A DNA stretch of 64,000 nucleotides from sequence record PZ154896.1; one strand, given 5' to 3'. A model generated the notes under the pieces. The model did not search any database, had not been told where the DNA came from, and saw only the letters and a program-made list of their open reading frames with translations. Positions within the stretch are counted from its first letter, which is position 1, and each line of letters opens with the position of its first letter. Shown one piece after another: positions 39,656 to 63,954 of the stretch. A program made the translations under genes and the position numbers. The stretch is from a phage.

Positions 39656-40756
39656 TTACGCTGTGAAGATTTTATCCCACATCGCAACAACTGCATCTCG
39701 GTTATACTTCTTCCATACTGCTTCAGCACGTTTAACTCGAGCTTCGTATGTGTCAGTGAATTCTAATACAGCTTTTGTGTAAAGCGCAACTACTTCTTTC
39801 TTAGGAGTAGAGGAATCAATTTCTACACGCACAGTATCTGGGTCGTATTCAAATGTCGCATGAGGATAATCCTTAAAAACTAACTGGATTACAGGGACAC
39901 CTTTAGAGATGGCTTCAATAGAACTATTCTCTACTGTACCTGTGTCAGGACAAGTATTAATAAGTGCTTTAGCTGTTTTAAGACGTTCCATGATTTCACT
40001 GTGTGGGGCATCAATAATAACAGGATATTTAGATGGTGGTGCCCATTTGCTTGGACAGTATCCTACACCATTTTCGCCTAGTGCTTTAATCGCTTCAAGA
40101 GCAACATCAGTACGACGCATTTTAGTGTCATAACGTTGTGCACTAATAATCAGATCAGTCGCCGGAAGAACTTCAGGTTTCTCATTCAAACAAATAACCG
40201 GATAATCTTCGGCTTCAAACAACGGATTTGCTCGCCAATAATCATAATCAATTTTGTCAGTCAGACCTGAAGTCATATGGCAATATTTACGTTCAAATTC
40301 ACGGAAGGCTTTAGTAGGAGCATAACTCTTACCACCATTCTTATGAATTTGAATAGTCTGGTCCCAAATTTGAACAATGCCACGAGATACTGGTTCAAAT
40401 GGTGTTGCCATAAAATTCTTATGAACTTTAGAGAGACCTGCGTCTTTAATTGCCTGAACGGTTAGTTTAGTCGGTTCCATAGTAACAACAAAATCGTATT
40501 CATGGATGCCGGCTAGTTCAACAATCTTACGAGCCATAGTATAACTCATACCTAGACTGAATTTAGTCAGATGACCAACAGGATGGTGTGTAACTTTCCA
40601 GTCACCAAACGTGTCATTATCAAAGCCGATATAATCAATATCAGCACCGATGGACACAAGATATTTCAACACATTTAAATGTACTGCTTCAAGGCCACCT
40701 TGTACACGGTCAGGATTAAATGGGACTGCGCGAGATGGGATAAACATAACTTTCAT
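39656..40756 (-). CDS. GT-B fold glycosyltransferase (GT4-like)
   Basis: 366 aa; N-terminal RVQGGLEAVHLNVLKYL and C-terminal TGTVENSSIEAISKGVPVI motifs typical of retaining GT4 enzymes; sits between rIIA.1 and gene 39. Confidence 0.6.
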   Translation of the reverse strand: MKVMFIPSRAVPFNPDRVQGGLEAVHLNVLKYLVSIGADIDYIGFDNDTFGDWKVTHHPVGHLTKFSLGMSYTMARKIVELAGIHEYDFVVTMEPTKLTVQAIKDAGLSKVHKNFMATPFEPVSRGIVQIWDQTIQIHKNGGKSYAPTKAFREFERKYCHMTSGLTDKIDYDYWRANPLFEAEDYPVICLNEKPEVLPATDLIISAQRYDTKMRRTDVALEAIKALGENGVGYCPSKWAPPSKYPVIIDAPHSEIMERLKTAKALINTCPDTGTVENSSIEAISKGVPVIQLVFKDYPHATFEYDPDTVRVEIDSSTPKKEVVALYTKAVLEFTDTYEARVKRAEAVWKKYNRDAVVAMWDKIFTA

Positions 40757-51930: not shown

Positions 51931-52452
51931 TTAGTAACCATTATCCTGGCGTTCAAAGTTGTGTTGGTTTTTCAGGTAATACAGTTTGAAGATTTCTTCA
52001 GCAGAAAGTCCTAGACCTTGGAACATATTTAGAACGAAATGTAGAATATCAATCATTTCAAATTTAATTTCAAGCTGGTCTTCAGGAGACAGTTCATCGA
52101 TACGACGATTTCGATATTCAGCATGTTGTGCTTTCCAAGGCTTCCATACAGAGCTAGCGGCTTTTTCACCATTGCTCATACCACCAAGTGAAGTCAGCAG
52201 TTCACGGAATTCATCATCAATATAATCTTTCTGATTACGCAGCCAATCAACAACATCACCAGCAGTGGCCAATTCATCAGGATGTTTGTTATGTTCAGGC
52301 TTGTCATTTGCCAGACGAACCTGTAAAGATTTCTGCATATCAAGCATTACCTGCAGAGGGTCTTTATCTTCATGAATCAGAGCATTAAAATAAGCTTCTT
52401 CTGCTTTATCAACACCAGAAATAAGTTGTGAACATTCGTTAAAGTGCGCCAT
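51931..52452 (-). CDS. 56: dCTPase/dUTPase gp56
   Basis: Internal ATG (MAHFNEC...) with AAAGGA RBS, 173 aa; strong match to T4 gp56 (DPLQVMLDMQ, FRELLTSLG, SPEDQLEIKFE). Confidence 0.88.
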   Translation of the reverse strand: MAHFNECSQLISGVDKAEEAYFNALIHEDKDPLQVMLDMQKSLQVRLANDKPEHNKHPDELATAGDVVDWLRNQKDYIDDEFRELLTSLGGMSNGEKAASSVWKPWKAQHAEYRNRRIDELSPEDQLEIKFEMIDILHFVLNMFQGLGLSAEEIFKLYYLKNQHNFERQDNGY

Positions 52453-52541
52453 TATTTTTCCTTTCAATTCAGTATAAGAGAGTTAATTCTAACATTAATT
52501 TTATAAAGCGTAATAAATAATAAGGTAACTAAGGAGATATT

Positions 52542-58285: not shown

Positions 58286-58627
58286 TTAAAAGAATTTAAA
58301 TTTTTTCTTGGTCCGTTCATTAAAAGCTTGTTGTACTTGCATTGTAACACATTTTTCAACATGTGGTGCAAGTTCTGCTTTTCTGTCCTGGTCAAGAACT
58401 GCAAAGTCCATTACGATTTTACCATCAACCCAGTCTAGTTTTGTAATATAGACTATATGATGAGAACCATCTTCAAGCGTAATCAGAATCTCTTGAATGA
58501 CATTTTCCATTGCTGAACGGATAATTTTAAGAGATTCATTAAACACTCGTTCTTTGCGAATGTCTTCCCCTTCCGAAGAAGGGGATTCATCAACGATTTC
58601 TAGATTTAAATCATCGAGATTATTCAT
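58286..58627 (-). CDS. 40: gp40 head vertex assembly chaperone (tentative)
   Basis: Internal ATG overlapping uvsX 3' end; 113 aa; T4 position between uvsX and 41. Confidence 0.5.
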   Translation of the reverse strand: MNNLDDLNLEIVDESPSSEGEDIRKERVFNESLKIIRSAMENVIQEILITLEDGSHHIVYITKLDWVDGKIVMDFAVLDQDRKAELAPHVEKCVTMQVQQAFNERTKKKFKFF

Positions 58628-59792
58628 CGAAATCTTCCATTTCGTCAAGGTCGTTTTCTATATCTGCTGCAGACGGAGCATCAGAAGTTTTAACCGGAAC
58701 TTTAGTTGTTGCTTTGCAATTAATAAGGTCGTTAACAGCATCATCAACTTCTTTAATAGAAGAGATAGCACCTAGTTTATATTTAGTTTCAATTGCATCT
58801 CGGAAAGGTTTGTGTTTAAACAACGGTCCCCAGAATTCTACACAATCAGTAGCTTTAGCACGCCATGATTTTTCTTCACGAATCATTTCGCCTGTTTCTT
58901 CGTCAAGGAATTCGCGAGCATACCACCCGGCTTTAGGCTTAACTACAAAACCAATTTCAGTTGCCATTTCTAACAAGCCACTGAATGGGTCAATACCACC
59001 ATCGAAATTAACCGTGATTGGGAAAGTAGATTTTTCTTTAACGGTGCGAGATTTTTCCGCTTTCAACGTGAAGTCATAACCGGTCAATTCTGTACCTTCT
59101 TTAACCTGACGTTTAGAGATAAAAAATACCGTGTTGGCAGAATAAAGAATACCTGTACCACCACCCATAATCTCTTTAGGATACAATCCGCCGATTTCCA
59201 TTGCTGTATGGTTGATTGCAACACATGGAATATCTTTAATAGTCAGATACGGGGTCACAATGCGGAACAGAGATTTAAGTGCCTTAGCACGAGACATATC
59301 ACCTACAACTTTCTCGTTCAATGCATCTTCGGTTTCTTTCTTAGACGCAGTATTACCGATTGAATCGATAAAGATAATAACTTTATCACCGCGTTCAATC
59401 GCGTCAAGCTGATTAGTCATATCAACTTTAAGTTGTTCGACAGATTGAATCGGAGTATGAACTACACGGTCTAAATCAACACCCATTGAACGAAAATAAG
59501 ATTCTGAAGCACCAAATTCCGAATCATAGAACAAACAAATTGCATCTTTATATTTCTTCATATATGCTGCAACCATGGTCAGTCCAAACAACGTTTTAAA
59601 GTGTTTAGAAGGAGCAGCAAAAATAGTTAAGCCTGATTGCAACCCAGCATTCAGTGCACCACCTAATGCAATATTCAACATCGGAATACGAGTAGGGACT
59701 TCATCACGATTATTAAACAGCTTAGACTTGGTCAAGTCTGCAGTCATTTTAGAAGTAGAAGCTTTAATCAGACGAGATTTTAAATCAGACAT
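58620..59792 (-). CDS. uvsX: UvsX recombinase (RecA-like)
   Basis: 390 aa; RecA-like ATPase core; T4 UvsX length and position. Confidence 0.9.
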   Translation of the reverse strand: MSDLKSRLIKASTSKMTADLTKSKLFNNRDEVPTRIPMLNIALGGALNAGLQSGLTIFAAPSKHFKTLFGLTMVAAYMKKYKDAICLFYDSEFGASESYFRSMGVDLDRVVHTPIQSVEQLKVDMTNQLDAIERGDKVIIFIDSIGNTASKKETEDALNEKVVGDMSRAKALKSLFRIVTPYLTIKDIPCVAINHTAMEIGGLYPKEIMGGGTGILYSANTVFFISKRQVKEGTELTGYDFTLKAEKSRTVKEKSTFPITVNFDGGIDPFSGLLEMATEIGFVVKPKAGWYAREFLDEETGEMIREEKSWRAKATDCVEFWGPLFKHKPFRDAIETKYKLGAISSIKEVDDAVNDLINCKATTKVPVKTSDAPSAADIENDLDEMEDFDE

Positions 59793-59891: not shown

Positions 59892-60440
59892 TTAACGAGC
59901 CCATTTGATAATTTCTGTAATCAAATAATTACGTTCGCTTGCATTAAATCCTATAACTTTGTTAGCGCCATCATGATTAAGTAATTGATACGTTTGGATT
60001 TCGTTATGAATTGCAAACTCTTCAAAATATGAAATGACTGTATTAAACCCGAATGAAGACAAAGTAATAAGGTCGTCTTCAAAACTTTCAGTCATTTCGT
60101 TACGTGTTAAAATAATTGTGAACACATCATGGTTTTGGCAAAGACGAACATAATCCTGTTCATAAACGTCGAGAACCGAGTCCGCATCTTGTCGAATACG
60201 TCCATAAACCCAGTTACTAATATATCCACGGTCTAGCAGATAAATCTTAGTAGGGTCTAAATAATTCAACATCGTTTCGAAACAGCCAACTTCATTTCGA
60301 GACTTAACATCGAAACGTCCATCAACTGTTCGTTTAGGGAAATCAATCTTTACATATCTTTCACTAATTTCCATTATGTCATTAATGAAAGTTGTTTTAC
60401 CAGCATTATCCGGGCCATCTACTAAAATAATTTTAGCCAT
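59892..60440 (-). CDS. thymidylate-kinase-family P-loop nucleotide kinase
   Basis: 182 aa; P-loop ILVDGPDNAGKTT and TMK DRx motif DRGYISNWVYG; GAGGA RBS; 1-nt gap after upstream gene. Confidence 0.65.
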   Translation of the reverse strand: MAKIILVDGPDNAGKTTFINDIMEISERYVKIDFPKRTVDGRFDVKSRNEVGCFETMLNYLDPTKIYLLDRGYISNWVYGRIRQDADSVLDVYEQDYVRLCQNHDVFTIILTRNEMTESFEDDLITLSSFGFNTVISYFEEFAIHNEIQTYQLLNHDGANKVIGFNASERNYLITEIIKWAR

Positions 60441-60441
60441 T

Positions 60442-61341
60442 TTATTCCTCGATTACGACATCTTCATATTTAGGTATATTATACGGCGAAGAAATTAAAG
60501 CATTAAAGTAGATGAACTCACCAAGACCTGGATGGAATACTTCTTCAGGATTTTCGAAATATTGAATCTTCGGTCGTCCTTTAAGAATTTGATAGTACTC
60601 AGTTTTAGTTGGTTTAAAAATTCGAATCAGCGCTTCTTCAGGATACTTATTTCTGTCGAAGCTATTATTTGGATCGGTTATATAAAGCGGTTGACCTAAT
60701 TGAATTGCACATTCAACCACTTGTTCAAAACGATAACACGGGTCACTAATTCGAAATGGATGAAAAATACCATCTAGATGAATAGGAGCCAAATCACCTA
60801 CAAGACGCTGCATGATGGAAGGACGTATAACTTTCTGGGTTACGATAATCTTATTACCATCGGCACCAGCGTTAACCAGCACTTCCTTTTGACGTTTATT
60901 CAACACAGTAGTTTGAAGTGAACGATTAACCGACAGCATGTCGGTTTTTAAGAATTCGTCAATATAAAAACGTGGTTTATTAGGGTCTGCAGTGATATTG
61001 AAATTGAATTCCACATCAAAAGCGCCGTCATATCCAGTGATATCTGTGATTAGAAAATCACAATCATAATAAGCAATTAATGAATCAACAACAAATTCAT
61101 TTTCAGACCAGAAATATTTACGAGTGTTATACGCGTTATCTTTATACCATAATGGAACAAACTTAAATTCCGGAAAAAGACGTTCACATTCTTTAATATC
61201 AGATGCATTACGTGGATATGTAATCACATCACCTGGATTAGCACGGTGCAAATGAAGTTGGAAGTTGCCATCCTTAAGGATAGCATACTGTCCAGTTTCA
61301 TAAGACCGCATACTCAAGATAGGTACGCGGAAAATAGCCAT
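60442..61341 (-). CDS. hypothetical protein (299 aa) in the beta-glucosyltransferase slot
   Basis: ORF track; TAATG overlap with upstream gp42-family gene; no resemblance to T4 beta-gt. Confidence 0.5.
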   Translation of the reverse strand: MAIFRVPILSMRSYETGQYAILKDGNFQLHLHRANPGDVITYPRNASDIKECERLFPEFKFVPLWYKDNAYNTRKYFWSENEFVVDSLIAYYDCDFLITDITGYDGAFDVEFNFNITADPNKPRFYIDEFLKTDMLSVNRSLQTTVLNKRQKEVLVNAGADGNKIIVTQKVIRPSIMQRLVGDLAPIHLDGIFHPFRISDPCYRFEQVVECAIQLGQPLYITDPNNSFDRNKYPEEALIRIFKPTKTEYYQILKGRPKIQYFENPEEVFHPGLGEFIYFNALISSPYNIPKYEDVVIEE

Positions 61342-62057
61342 TAGTCAAGGAATCCTTTAACATAATCAAAATCACGTTCAAACACATGGGCACTTACCAT
61401 GGTATGAGTATAATCACCAACTTCTACACCACATTCGTTAGCGATATAATGAAGTAATTTTCCTTGGAGATAAAAATCCAACTGCATAACAACAGCACAG
61501 TTCTGAGAACGCATATGACAGTGGGTATAAAGCTTACCATCACGAATATAATAAGTCACTGAGTCAGTACATGGATATTCAAGTGTTTCGTCCGAATCAA
61601 GCAAAGCCTGATCTGAACTTTCAAGAATTTGAAACACAACTCTTCGTGAATTAGGTTTCTCTTTAAGTTCTTTTAGAAGAGCTGGTAATTGGGCCGCAAT
61701 GCGAGGACCATAGAAAGTGTTGAAGTTCGCCGGCAAAACATCTGATTTTGGTTTAGAAATAAATTTAGCGACATTAGGATATGCCTTAAACGCTTCTTCT
61801 GCGTTGGTACCGCCAGAAATCATAAACTTCCAGAAGTCTTCGGCATATTCATAAGAGATGCGGTTAATACGTGGGTCGGTCATTTTGAATGTTGACGGGG
61901 TATCAACAACTACTGTCATAGACCCAATTTCATTACAACGTCCAATACGAGAATCAGTTACGAATTCCGGGTTTTCTAAAATTTCACGATTGACTGCTTT
62001 AAATGCGGTTTGAAAATCTGCGGCTTTGATATATTTCATTGTGTTATGTTTTCCCAT
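61341..62057 (-). CDS. thymidylate-synthase/dCMP-hydroxymethylase family enzyme, divergent gp42-like
   Basis: 238 aa; NSRR phosphate site, nucleophile Cys in YPCTDS, Asp in QLDFY at the pyrimidine-specifying position (cytosine-type) but RSQN where TS has RSCD and gp42 RSND; only ~30% identity to T4 gp42 by eye. Confidence 0.65.
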   Translation of the reverse strand: MGKHNTMKYIKAADFQTAFKAVNREILENPEFVTDSRIGRCNEIGSMTVVVDTPSTFKMTDPRINRISYEYAEDFWKFMISGGTNAEEAFKAYPNVAKFISKPKSDVLPANFNTFYGPRIAAQLPALLKELKEKPNSRRVVFQILESSDQALLDSDETLEYPCTDSVTYYIRDGKLYTHCHMRSQNCAVVMQLDFYLQGKLLHYIANECGVEVGDYTHTMVSAHVFERDFDYVKGFLD

Positions 62058-62178: not shown

Positions 62179-62340
62179 TCAGCGTAGTATTCCAATTGAA
62201 CAGGTTTCTTTAATCACTTTAGCCGCTTTAGTTTCAAACAGGCCCATCAGGGCCTTTTTAAGAATTTGTTCGTTGCTGTTAATTTTCGTAGTCAAAATCT
62301 CTTCATTAAGTTGGTGGTTAAAAGTTTTTCTAGAAATCAT
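62179..62340 (-). CDS. possible small protein (53 aa) coupled to the upstream Cys-rich enzyme
   Basis: Manual translation MISRKTFNHQLNEEILTTKINSNEQILKKALMGLFETKAAKVIKETCSIGILR; ATGA overlap with upstream stop; contains GGCCC-ugau-GGGCC hairpin that could instead be a terminator. Confidence 0.3.
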   Translation of the reverse strand: MISRKTFNHQLNEEILTTKINSNEQILKKALMGLFETKAAKVIKETCSIGILR

Positions 62341-63497
62341 TCCGGGTACCTCAAAGCGTCATCAGAGTTAGTTATATCAATAATAGATATAGAGTTTTCT
62401 GCTAACCCGTTTTTAGATAATTGACGTTTATAATATCTTTCACAATATGTACACGTCGTCCCGCAGATTTCATTAGCACAATCGAAATCTGGATGTCTGA
62501 ACCACCTTTTTTCTAAAAAGCCATCTAACAAAGAGGTTTCAATATTTACTGTATGTGAAAACTCTGTCTCATTTTCAAGAGTGAAAATGGTCTCTAAAGG
62601 CTTCCACAGTTCTAACAAATTACCTTCAAACTTTTCAGAAGCATAAGCTTCAAGAACTTTCAAAATGTAGTCTGTGCTACCTGTACGTCCTGAAACTTTG
62701 AATTGAGTGATACCAATATCATTATAAAGTTTCAAATCTTGAGGACGAACAAAACGAGTTCTCAACCAGTTAAATGGATCTGTATCACGAGCTTTAATAC
62801 AGTGCTGCATTGGATATCCATTTAAAGATTTGGCATCATCTACTGTAACATCGGTGCTATGGAAAATATAGCAAGAGTCACGATAACTACAATGTGTTGT
62901 ATACCCTTTACCAGCATTAGAACAGAACTCATTTACAAGAACTTCAAATATTATATTGTTCTTATTACAAAACTCTGCTGCACGCTTCAGGAAAGAAACT
63001 GAACGGTTCTTATGAATTCCGCAGCAGACCTTTTTGATATTATATTGGTCATGCAAGTATTTGATTTGAGTTACAGCATCGACATGTAGAATTGTTGAAA
63101 CTTCAATCTCAATGTCTTTATTGACTTCACGAACAATTTCCATAACAACAGGGTTAGCGATAGTAATACGCCATACGCCTATTGACCAAAGATACTGAAC
63201 ATAATCCTGAATAGCTTTCTTCTTCCACTCAACTAGTTCTCTTTTTGAACCAGGATTTATCGTGTTGAGTGTATAGTTAAAGCAAATACCTAATTCGTTA
63301 CAACGTTTAACGTAATCTTCTAACATCTTTTTGTCAACGTCAGGAAGCCTAAAATCAGGTCTGGCTGCTACAAAAGCCATTTCTCTTGTAGAGCCGTATA
63401 CTTCGTTTATCAAGCTATTAGGATAAGTTTTATTGAGCTCTACGATTTTATCAAGAAGAGCTAAATCAAAATTCGTTCCGATTTTAAAAGTATTCAT
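62337..63497 (-). CDS. Cys-rich TIM-barrel-like enzyme, tentatively U32 family (RlhA/TrhP/UbiU-like)
   Basis: 386 aa; blocks GTNFDLALLDKIVEL, NPVVMEIVREV..IEIEVS and HCSYRDSC resemble U32 motifs (AG.L..L.AAI, DPG.IMLVRE..P...IHLS, C-x6-C); extra C-terminal CX4CX3CX2C cluster. Confidence 0.45.
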   Translation of the reverse strand: MNTFKIGTNFDLALLDKIVELNKTYPNSLINEVYGSTREMAFVAARPDFRLPDVDKKMLEDYVKRCNELGICFNYTLNTINPGSKRELVEWKKKAIQDYVQYLWSIGVWRITIANPVVMEIVREVNKDIEIEVSTILHVDAVTQIKYLHDQYNIKKVCCGIHKNRSVSFLKRAAEFCNKNNIIFEVLVNEFCSNAGKGYTTHCSYRDSCYIFHSTDVTVDDAKSLNGYPMQHCIKARDTDPFNWLRTRFVRPQDLKLYNDIGITQFKVSGRTGSTDYILKVLEAYASEKFEGNLLELWKPLETIFTLENETEFSHTVNIETSLLDGFLEKRWFRHPDFDCANEICGTTCTYCERYYKRQLSKNGLAENSISIIDITNSDDALRYPE

Positions 63498-63552: not shown

Positions 63553-63954
63553 TTATAGATTCGGTTTATATGATTTAAATGTTTCGAATTCGCCTTTATT
63601 CATAAGAGCTTTGAATTCGTCAGGACGCATAGCTTTGTCGTCGATAATCCAATCATATACTGGTTTATGTGTTAGCAAATTATGGTACTTCAATCCAATG
63701 TTTGCCAAGTTCTGAATCAGACTTGGGAGAATGTCAATTGCTATACGACCAGGACCTACTGACTTCATACCGCGAGCAGTGTAAAGCGTTATTGTATGCC
63801 CTGCATCATACAGGGCATTAATGGCAGACACCATTTCGACGTCTGGTTTGAAGTTCACGTAATCACGATTGTTATTCCACTCTGTTATACAATCATCGAC
63901 ATCAAAACAAAGATTAAGCATGTTTTTTACACGGTGCATTAGATTCGTTCCCAT
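63553..63954 (-). CDS. HAD-superfamily phosphatase (small, capless)
   Basis: 133 aa; motif I FDVDDCIT, motif II ITLYTARG, motif III K (HKP), motif IV IIDDK. Confidence 0.6.
   Translation of the reverse strand: MGTNLMHRVKNMLNLCFDVDDCITEWNNNRDYVNFKPDVEMVSAINALYDAGHTITLYTARGMKSVGPGRIAIDILPSLIQNLANIGLKYHNLLTHKPVYDWIIDDKAMRPDEFKALMNKGEFETFKSYKPNL

Follow-up and report, generated by a model that had tools for sequence, protein, structure and literature searches.

A thymidylate kinase-like gene in a cytosine-modification cluster

The window analyzed here, 64,000 nucleotides of phage DNA (sequence record PZ154896.1), derives from a Mosigvirus, an RB69-like phage; its last 5 kb are 98.5% identical at the DNA level to Escherichia phage ST0 and match 156 records, hereafter the Mosigvirus set, at 95% identity or more. 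Our subject is a minus-strand gene of this window (59892..60440, ATG start) that encodes a 182-residue kinase resembling thymidylate kinases (TMKs). The protein is the orthologue of RB69 ORF045c, or gp45 (AY303349; NP_861735.1), with 98.9% identity over 182 residues by tblastn. In the order of transcription, the minus strand carries genes for a HAD phosphatase, a Peptidase-U32-family (U32) protein, a 53-codon open reading frame (ORF), a ThyA homologue, the glycosyltransferase GT1, the kinase itself and uvsX. The kinase gene is clustered both with a DNA glycosyltransferase and with a ThyA homologue that bears D169N and N177D, the diagnostic signature of 5-hydroxy-dCMP (5hodCMP) synthases (PMC13326640).

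GT1 (60442..61341, minus strand; 299 residues), the counterpart of RB69 gp46:47 and the proposed first arabinosyltransferase (PMC13326640, Table 1), matches PHROG 3891 at E 3e-156 and has no Pfam match. Its TAA stop codon occupies 60442-60444 and the kinase ATG 60438-60440, leaving a spacer of one base (60441), just as an earlier sequence-only reading of this DNA had described when it placed the kinase one nucleotide downstream of its operon partner. Within this junction (60441..60450, minus strand, read from the DNA), a Shine-Dalgarno sequence, GAGGA (60446-60450), lies inside the 3′ end of the GT1 gene. A promoter and terminator scan of the GT1-kinase interval found nothing above shuffle expectation, with fewer matches than in the shuffles.

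The P-loop and DRx motifs named in that reading are also borne out by the DNA. The P-loop, GPDNAGKT (residues 9-16; 60393..60416, minus strand), is encoded in reverse complement by GGC CCG GAT AAT GCT GGT AAA ACA and carries a TMK-type acidic residue, D11, in the DNA reading and in alignments. The DRG motif (residues 70-72; 60225..60233, minus strand), with codons GAC CGT GGA for D70, R71 and G72, is the counterpart of the TMK DR(Y/H) motif, its third residue being Gly. Alignment of 20 homologues yields 37 invariant columns, including G9, D11, N12, G14, K15 and T16 of the P-loop as well as D70 and R71. Other invariant residues are R37, R42, R48, N49, E50, F54, E55, N76, Y79, D122 and D123. Among 104 family members, D11 is kept in at least 90% and R71 is again invariant; an FPxR motif is, like DR, invariant in both the 20-homologue and the 104-member alignments.

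Fold and family of the kinase

The kinase has the three-dimensional fold of TMKs, which are its nearest solved structures. Assignment to the TMK family, as first proposed, therefore stands by fold and by broad profile comparison but not by the curated Pfam model, PF02223, which gave no match at E≤0.1 and whose threshold the protein does not reach. PHROG 761, labeled ‘thymidylate kinase’, matches at E 6e-45, whereas the sole Pfam match is to AAA_14 (E 0.038, below its cut-off) and phmmer against TMKs in the PDB gave an E of about 0.8 over the P-loop only. Single-sequence searches of the PDB and Pfam returned only P-loop noise (RecA, thioredoxin, ABC transporters), and we also discount as noise an NCBIfam match to IS4 transposase whose E of 0.0026 falls well short of the cut-off. 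A profile built from the 20 homologues gave a weak match to vaccinia TMK (E 0.003), which covers the P-loop and the FPxR motif. The 104-member profile matched YorR of SPbeta at E 1e-23 and then many TMKs over their full length at E 1e-14 to 1e-13, with a DR..S..(A/V)Y motif in register. The kinase P-loop aligns to GLDKSGKT of vaccinia TMK, and its DRG to DRY in the vaccinia enzyme and DRF in the Aquifex enzyme. This is a small family: at E≤1e-3, a set of 1.84 billion proteins contains 309 of its clusters at 50% identity. A kinase-profile search of RL2RES in the region 100-140 kb found no detectable homologue, and neither P0059 nor P0050, two distant proteins used singly as queries, retrieved any related locus. 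By these comparisons, the kinase belongs to the TMK superfamily as a divergent representative, one that the curated TMK model does not recognize.

What it shares with Tmk (EC 2.7.4.9, PF02223) is the acidic third residue of the P-loop, the FPxR-like and DR motifs and, presumably, the reaction ATP + dNMP -> ADP + dNDP. In TMKs, this acidic residue contacts the 3′-OH of the acceptor deoxynucleotide, and a helix segment, LLFCANRWE, provides a stacking Phe and an O4-binding Arg. The differences are substantial. The kinase is shorter at 182 residues and only 8-19% identical to TMKs, which places it below the Pfam threshold; it has one helix between strands 2 and 3 where TMKs have two; the thymine-contacting helix segment does not align to it; and its lid region contains an unusual invariant acidic sequence, F-x-D-D-L-I. 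Moreover, its genomic context indicates a cytosine derivative rather than thymine. YorR, from the SPbeta prophage of B. subtilis (PDB 2AXP/3KB2), is uncharacterized and resides in a prophage without known cytosine modification; its kinship is with the superfamily and not with the subgroup linked to 5-hydroxycytosine (5hoC).

Co-inheritance with the 5-hydroxy-dCMP synthase

The pathway to which the cluster belongs has been described for RB69, whose DNA carries mono- and di-arabinosylated 5hoC and not arabinosyl-hydroxymethylcytosine (Lee et al., NAR 2026, PMC13326640). The RB69 ThyA homologue, gp48, was shown experimentally to make 5hodCMP with flavin mononucleotide (FMN) and O2, and arabinose is joined to C5 through an ether (PMC13326640). 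A hydroxymethyl pathway is thus contradicted, because the ThyA homologue beside the kinase makes 5hodCMP and the sugar is an arabinose in ether linkage. In the same study, the gene 1 kinase of RB69, gp159, converted 5hodCMP to 5hodCDP in vitro, the synthase and gp159 sufficed to place 5hodC in E. coli DNA, and gp45-gp55 were jointly assigned to pre-replicative 5hodCTP synthesis, sugar activation and sugar transfer. The kinase studied here is additional to gene 1, a point that had been raised for checking: RB69 has gene 1 (RB69p159), which finds matches of 90% identity or more in 156 records. This number is about that of the Mosigvirus records, all of which carry gene 1 as well; gene 1 itself lies outside the window.

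Across 50,697 phage records, 344 contain a kinase homologue (36-99.5% identity) and 343 contain a synthase orthologue, counted at E≤1e-40. These numbers are nearly identical genus by genus, with kinase and synthase records of 177 and 177 for Escherichia, 57 and 57 for Acinetobacter, 25 and 26 for Klebsiella, 15 and 15 for Shigella, 9 and 9 each for Enterobacter and Serratia, 7 and 7 for Proteus, and 6 and 6 for Yersinia. Because 344 records have a homologue and 37 alignment columns are invariant, the kinase gene is real and not a chance ORF. In 20 loci centered on the kinase, genes for the synthase, GT1, the HAD phosphatase and an AfhE-like protein accompany it in every T4-like locus except that of Morganella phage MP1, whereas only certain clusters include the U32 gene. 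The reverse comparison used 50 IMG/VR loci, each centered on a synthase homologue with an identity of 45% or more, and a radius of 3 kb; a kinase homologue lay within that distance in 43, and four of the seven loci without one are on truncated contigs.

The position of the kinase within the cluster varies. GT1 is directly upstream in most loci, and the kinase follows it in Mosigvirus, Acinetobacter phages and Morganella phage Rgz1. Dhakavirus instead has the kinase flanked by the HAD phosphatase and the synthase, and in some Klebsiella and Proteus-type phages it is found between the HAD and U32 genes. Coupling to GT1 as operon partner is therefore a common arrangement without being universal, the exceptions being Dhakavirus and some Klebsiella phages.

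Distant contexts and Morganella phage MP1

The module also turns up outside T4-like phages. Locus L034 has synthase, GT1 and kinase; L030 has an AfhE-like gene, HAD, synthase, an EndoIV-like gene, GT1 and kinase; L027 has GT1 and kinase; and L026 has dCMP deaminase, dUTPase, synthase, a fusion of kinase and HhH-GPD domain, FMN reductase, SIS isomerase and an AfhE-like gene, GT1 being absent from the 12.8 kb of L026 sequence examined. Every synthase of the L034, L030 and L026 loci carries D169N and N177D. The inserted gene of L030 (6217-6915), which resembles T4 EndoIV (DenB) and stands between synthase and GT1, links a nuclease specific for cytosine-containing DNA to the module. Fusions to HhH-GPD occur at L026 8001-9074 (P0059) and L032 127-1092 (P0065) and in P0060, P0067, P0069, P0074 and P0076; the L026 fusion is flanked by the D169N synthase on one side and the FMN reductase gene on the other, with the isomerase and AfhE-like genes after it.

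In jumbo-sized contigs, the order is synthase, a 430-residue protein, an NAD sugar epimerase and the kinase (L075 3684-6597, and also L071, L076 and L083, which are IMG/VR contigs of 130-290 kb). The 430-residue protein is conserved and has no Pfam match, the epimerase is of epimerase/dehydratase type in L075 and L083, and the kinase P-loop in these large contigs reads GLSRTGKS, without Asp. L075-type contigs probably place a different sugar on 5hoC, as judged from their gene content. As these contigs have a putative other transferase and an NAD sugar epimerase, the kinase appears to persist under changed sugar chemistry, which points to a link with the base and not with the sugar. The remotest relatives, in L023 and L024, adjoin ThyA homologues that keep D169 and have N177D, the signature of dCMP hydroxymethylases. 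In L023, genes for a dCMP deaminase and a MazG-like NTP pyrophosphatase are also nearby, a pathway that operates purely on nucleotides and parallels T4 gp56, gp42 and gp1.

Phage MP1 requires separate comment. An intact kinase gene, whose product is 60% identical to the Rgz1 kinase, lies between its DNA polymerase and uvsX genes, and the synthase, GT1 and sugar genes of the 5hoC cluster were not found in the 138 of 163 kb examined (up to 100 kb and from 125 kb onward). That sequence does contain a gene 1 kinase, a gp56-like pyrophosphatase and DenB-like and Alc-like genes. Its one ThyA homologue is at the td/frd locus (L087 17020-17859, minus strand; record 142020-142859) and is annotated as thymidylate synthase, and it has QRSADVPLGLNFD, corresponding to N177D, whereas the td of the window keeps the canonical Asn. 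MP1 is thus not a clean exception, because the ThyA homologue at its td locus is of cytosine type, and it may modify cytosine with an enzyme mislabeled as td.

A predicted kinase for 5-substituted dCMP

We observe the gene, the fold and motifs of its product and its joint inheritance with the synthase, and from these we infer the substrate. The kinase would be a TMK-fold mononucleotide kinase of the cytosine-replacement module that converts 5hodCMP to 5hodCDP and overlaps with gene 1 in function, a reading to which we assign a probability of roughly 0.55. In this pathway, a gp56-like dCTPase would supply dCMP, the FMN-dependent ThyA homologue would convert it to 5hodCMP, and the kinase would use ATP to form 5hodCDP. 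Host nucleoside-diphosphate kinase would then make the triphosphate for incorporation by the phage polymerase, and glycosyltransferases would arabinosylate the 5-hydroxyl. In T4-type phages, the kinase would travel with the synthase in a mobile module and overlap functionally with the resident gene 1 deoxynucleoside monophosphate (dNMP) kinase; this synthase-transferase-kinase module may have entered at the site bounded by uvsX and gene 43, which in T4 is occupied by β-gt and gene 42. Across the contexts described above, the simplest account is that the kinase family phosphorylates 5-substituted dCMP produced by cytosine-specific ThyA homologues. The dedicated kinase for a non-standard monophosphate envisaged in the sequence-only reading is thus likely, because co-occurrence, gene order and motifs all favor a dedicated nucleotide kinase, although the base would be 5-hydroxy and not hydroxymethyl.

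Several observations weigh against this assignment. RB69 gp1 already converts 5hodCMP, and synthase plus gp1 is enough for 5hodC in DNA (PMC13326640), so the need for a second kinase is not evident, even though phages hardly ever lose it. The TMK helix LLFCANRWE, with its base-binding residues, aligns as an insertion relative to the kinase family. Some distant relatives carry a fused, DNA-glycosylase-like HhH-GPD domain, a possible sign that they act on DNA. The suggested pairing of the MP1 kinase with a cytosine-type ThyA homologue rests on 138 of 163 kb. Finally, we found no enzymatic assay of the kinase in the accessible literature, although the primary pathway papers may contain one.

Action on DNA had also been raised at the outset, in the form of a kinase like those of thymidine hypermodification. 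Here such an enzyme would phosphorylate the 5-hydroxyl of 5hoC in the polymer, as 5-hydroxymethyluracil DNA kinases (5-HMUDKs) do with their base, and we regard this as highly improbable. Profile comparison with a verified 5-HMUDK, M6 gp54, does give weak similarity (hhalign probability 81%, E 1e-5, 82 columns), and the fusion of seven distant kinase relatives to a C-terminal HhH-GPD domain recalls the pairing of 5-HMUDK with the glycosylase-like aGPT-Pplase (PMC8989533). However, the 82 columns are N-terminal and confined to the P-loop region, LFEG replaces the invariant LDRG so that M6 gp54 has no DR motif, and the two proteins fall into PHROGs 761 (kinase) and 800 (M6 gp54), with M6 gp54 matching 761 over 24 P-loop residues only. 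The partial alignment, the missing LDRG and the separate PHROG speak against the kinase being a 5-HMUDK. The fused domain of the distant relatives, moreover, matches Pfam HhH-GPD and not the aGPT-Pplase families, and the TMK-type acidic P-loop residue, FPxR and DR that are conserved in the kinase serve the nucleotide phosphate and the 3′-OH. The chemistry of the product also argues against a polymer-level step, because the mature base retains O5 in the ether to arabinose C1 (PMC13326640); with O5 kept as the glycosidic oxygen, a phosphate leaving group is not needed. The kinase neighbors are a glycosyltransferase, a ThyA homologue, U32 and HAD genes, and neither an aGPT-Pplase nor an amino-acid:DNA transferase gene is among them.

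Other substrates deserve consideration. If GT1 added the first arabinose to 5hodCMP, the kinase, unlike gp1, could phosphorylate the bulky Ara-5hodCMP, and a pre-glycosylated dNTP would be polymerized. This order of events, which would provide a pre-replicative route to a sugar-bearing base, would explain the retention of a second kinase beside gp1, and the commonest gene order is GT1 followed by the kinase, with stop and start codons overlapping or one nucleotide apart, also in the remote loci L027, L030, L034, L061-L070 and L074. The published work, in addition, leaves the stage of the first arabinosylation undetermined and reports a failure to see glycosyltransferase activity on 5hoC-DNA. 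We nonetheless judge the scheme unlikely. The kinase is upstream of the synthase and not next to GT1 in Dhakavirus, Klebsiella and Proteus-type clusters, the L023 and MP1 relatives accompany hydroxymethylase-type ThyA homologues with no transferase nearby, 5hodC enters E. coli DNA without any glycosyltransferase (PMC13326640) and later arabinoses are added on DNA; a Bas46 Aat deletion mutant, furthermore, was tested against a defence system and so is evidently viable (PMC13216743). An ordinary pyrimidine dNMP kinase that boosts the supply of dTMP-, dUMP- or dCMP-derived precursors and is unrelated to the modified base is improbable as well. The fold relationship to thymidylate kinases, the RefSeq name and the presence of the kinase in MP1 without the 5hoC cluster speak for it, but it leaves unexplained the near one-to-one co-occurrence with the 5hodCMP synthase over the phage records and the location of the kinase inside the modification operon in every lineage. 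The Pfam TMK model is not reached, dTMP is already served by gp1 and the Tmk of the host, this kinase is absent from T4-type phages whose hydroxymethylcytosine comes from gp42, and the ThyA homologue of MP1 is itself of cytosine type. A role in the sugar branch, either regenerating UTP from UMP/UDP for UDP-arabinofuranose or phosphorylating an arabinose phosphate, could be imagined from the embedding of the gene among UDP-arabinose genes and its position directly after the HAD phosphatase in Dhakavirus. This role is very unlikely, as the bifunctional AfhE-type protein already provides a sugar kinase and pyrophosphorylase (PMC13326640), the kinase is present where the sugar genes differ (L075) or are absent (L023, MP1), and the fold is that of a nucleoside monophosphate kinase and not of a sugar kinase.

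A 5hodCMP kinase of this kind would resemble the T4 gene 1 dNMP kinase (PDB 1DEK, PHROG 139) in its proposed role of phosphorylating 5-substituted dCMP, although the two show no sequence or profile homology; a relation to gp1 was rejected at an hhalign probability of 0.6%. With M6 gp54, the kinase shares its small size, a P-loop and a place near a ThyA homologue in a phage base-hypermodification cluster, but M6 gp54 installs a leaving group on DNA, whereas ether-linked arabinosyl-5hoC needs none. M6 gp54 (L025 16686-17249, Pseudomonas phage M6) is named ‘terminase small subunit’ in RefSeq, and PHROG 800 bears the same label, which is a propagated mis-annotation.

Both the kinase gene and the role predicted for it have been published before; the present work correctly rediscovers an annotated gene and does not uncover a new system. 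RefSeq calls the protein "thymidylate kinase", RB69p045 was listed in 2021 as a thymidylate-kinase homologue presumably involved in modification (PMC8056088), and it appears in PMC13326640 only in Table 1, as a ‘nucleotide kinase’ with TMK fold matches. RB69 gp45, DLP3 gp78 and RL38J1 gp214, all given that name (PMC13326640), are the same gene in the same position after synthase and GT1, and they have the same structural matches as the window kinase (TMK 4s35, YorR 3kb2). Fold matches and label thus come from that study, whereas distribution, motifs and contexts were worked out here.

The 5hoC/arabinose pathway was worked out only in 2025-2026. Knowing the kinase substrate would settle whether the first sugar precedes or follows replication and why a second kinase is retained by phages that have a broad dNMP kinase. 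The enzyme could also serve the synthesis of 5-hydroxy-dCTP or glycosylated dCTP for synthetic nucleic-acid work.

Other genes of the cluster and window

In the window, GT1 is one intact 299-codon ORF, whereas the RB69 reference has split ORFs 46 and 47, a split that Lee et al. ascribe to sequencing error (PMC13326640). The 5hodCMP synthase (61341..62057, minus strand; 238 residues), equivalent to RB69 gp48 and bearing D169N and N177D, matches Pfam Thymidylat_synt at E 2e-15. It is essentially identical to PDB 9iqc/9ir2/9iqu (E 2e-160), entries that presumably represent the enzyme from HY126 (He et al. 2026). Next upstream is the small conserved ORF (62179..62340, minus strand; 53 residues) at the RB69p049 position, which shares 4 nucleotides with the end of the U32 gene; it is annotated in related genomes, being a coding sequence in Shigella phage phi25-307, and a family search with it gave no match. 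The HAD-type phosphatase (63553..63954, minus strand; 133 residues) is RB69 gp51, or AfhF of HY126, and matches PHROG 1238 and an NCBIfam capsule biosynthesis phosphatase model (E 4e-13); AfhF acts as an arabinose-1,5-bisphosphate 5-phosphatase (PMC13326640). In near-identical genomes, the cluster runs past the window end with genes for a bifunctional nucleotidyltransferase/kinase and an arabinose-5-phosphate isomerase. On the other side, uvsX (58620..59792, minus strand), annotated recA/UvsX in near-identical genomes, forms the downstream boundary.

Two further genes lie farther away. A gp56-like dCTP/dUTP pyrophosphatase (51931..52467, minus strand; Pfam dUTPase_2 / PRA-PH), the candidate dCMP supplier, corresponds to RB69p028, which is listed as a dCTPase (PMC13326640). 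A 366-residue protein (39656..40756, minus strand) in the interval between rIIA and the topoisomerase gene, at the RB69p003 position, is a probable second arabinosyltransferase by synteny only (PMC13390438); it matches PHROG 8302 at E 4e-222, a family of unknown function in PHROGs, and has no Pfam match.

The U32 protein (62337..63497, minus strand; 386 residues), equivalent to RB69 gp50, matches Pfam Peptidase_U32 at E 6e-11 and, weakly, NCBIfam UbiU at E 5e-4, and has been labeled only ‘sugar or heterocycle reductase’ (PMC13326640). In Morganella phage Rgz1 and Serratia phage LC53, a ‘chorismate mutase’ gene adjoins the synthase; besides the window gene, the U32/chorismate mutase loci include L029 12023-12400 and 10667-11827. 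The U32 proteins RlhA, TrhP and UbiU/V hydroxylate their substrates in a prephenate-dependent, O2-independent manner, and 5-hydroxycytidine in rRNA is the product of RlhA. By analogy, the phage U32 protein may provide an anaerobic route to 5-hydroxycytosine, as a backup for the O2- and FMN-dependent synthase.

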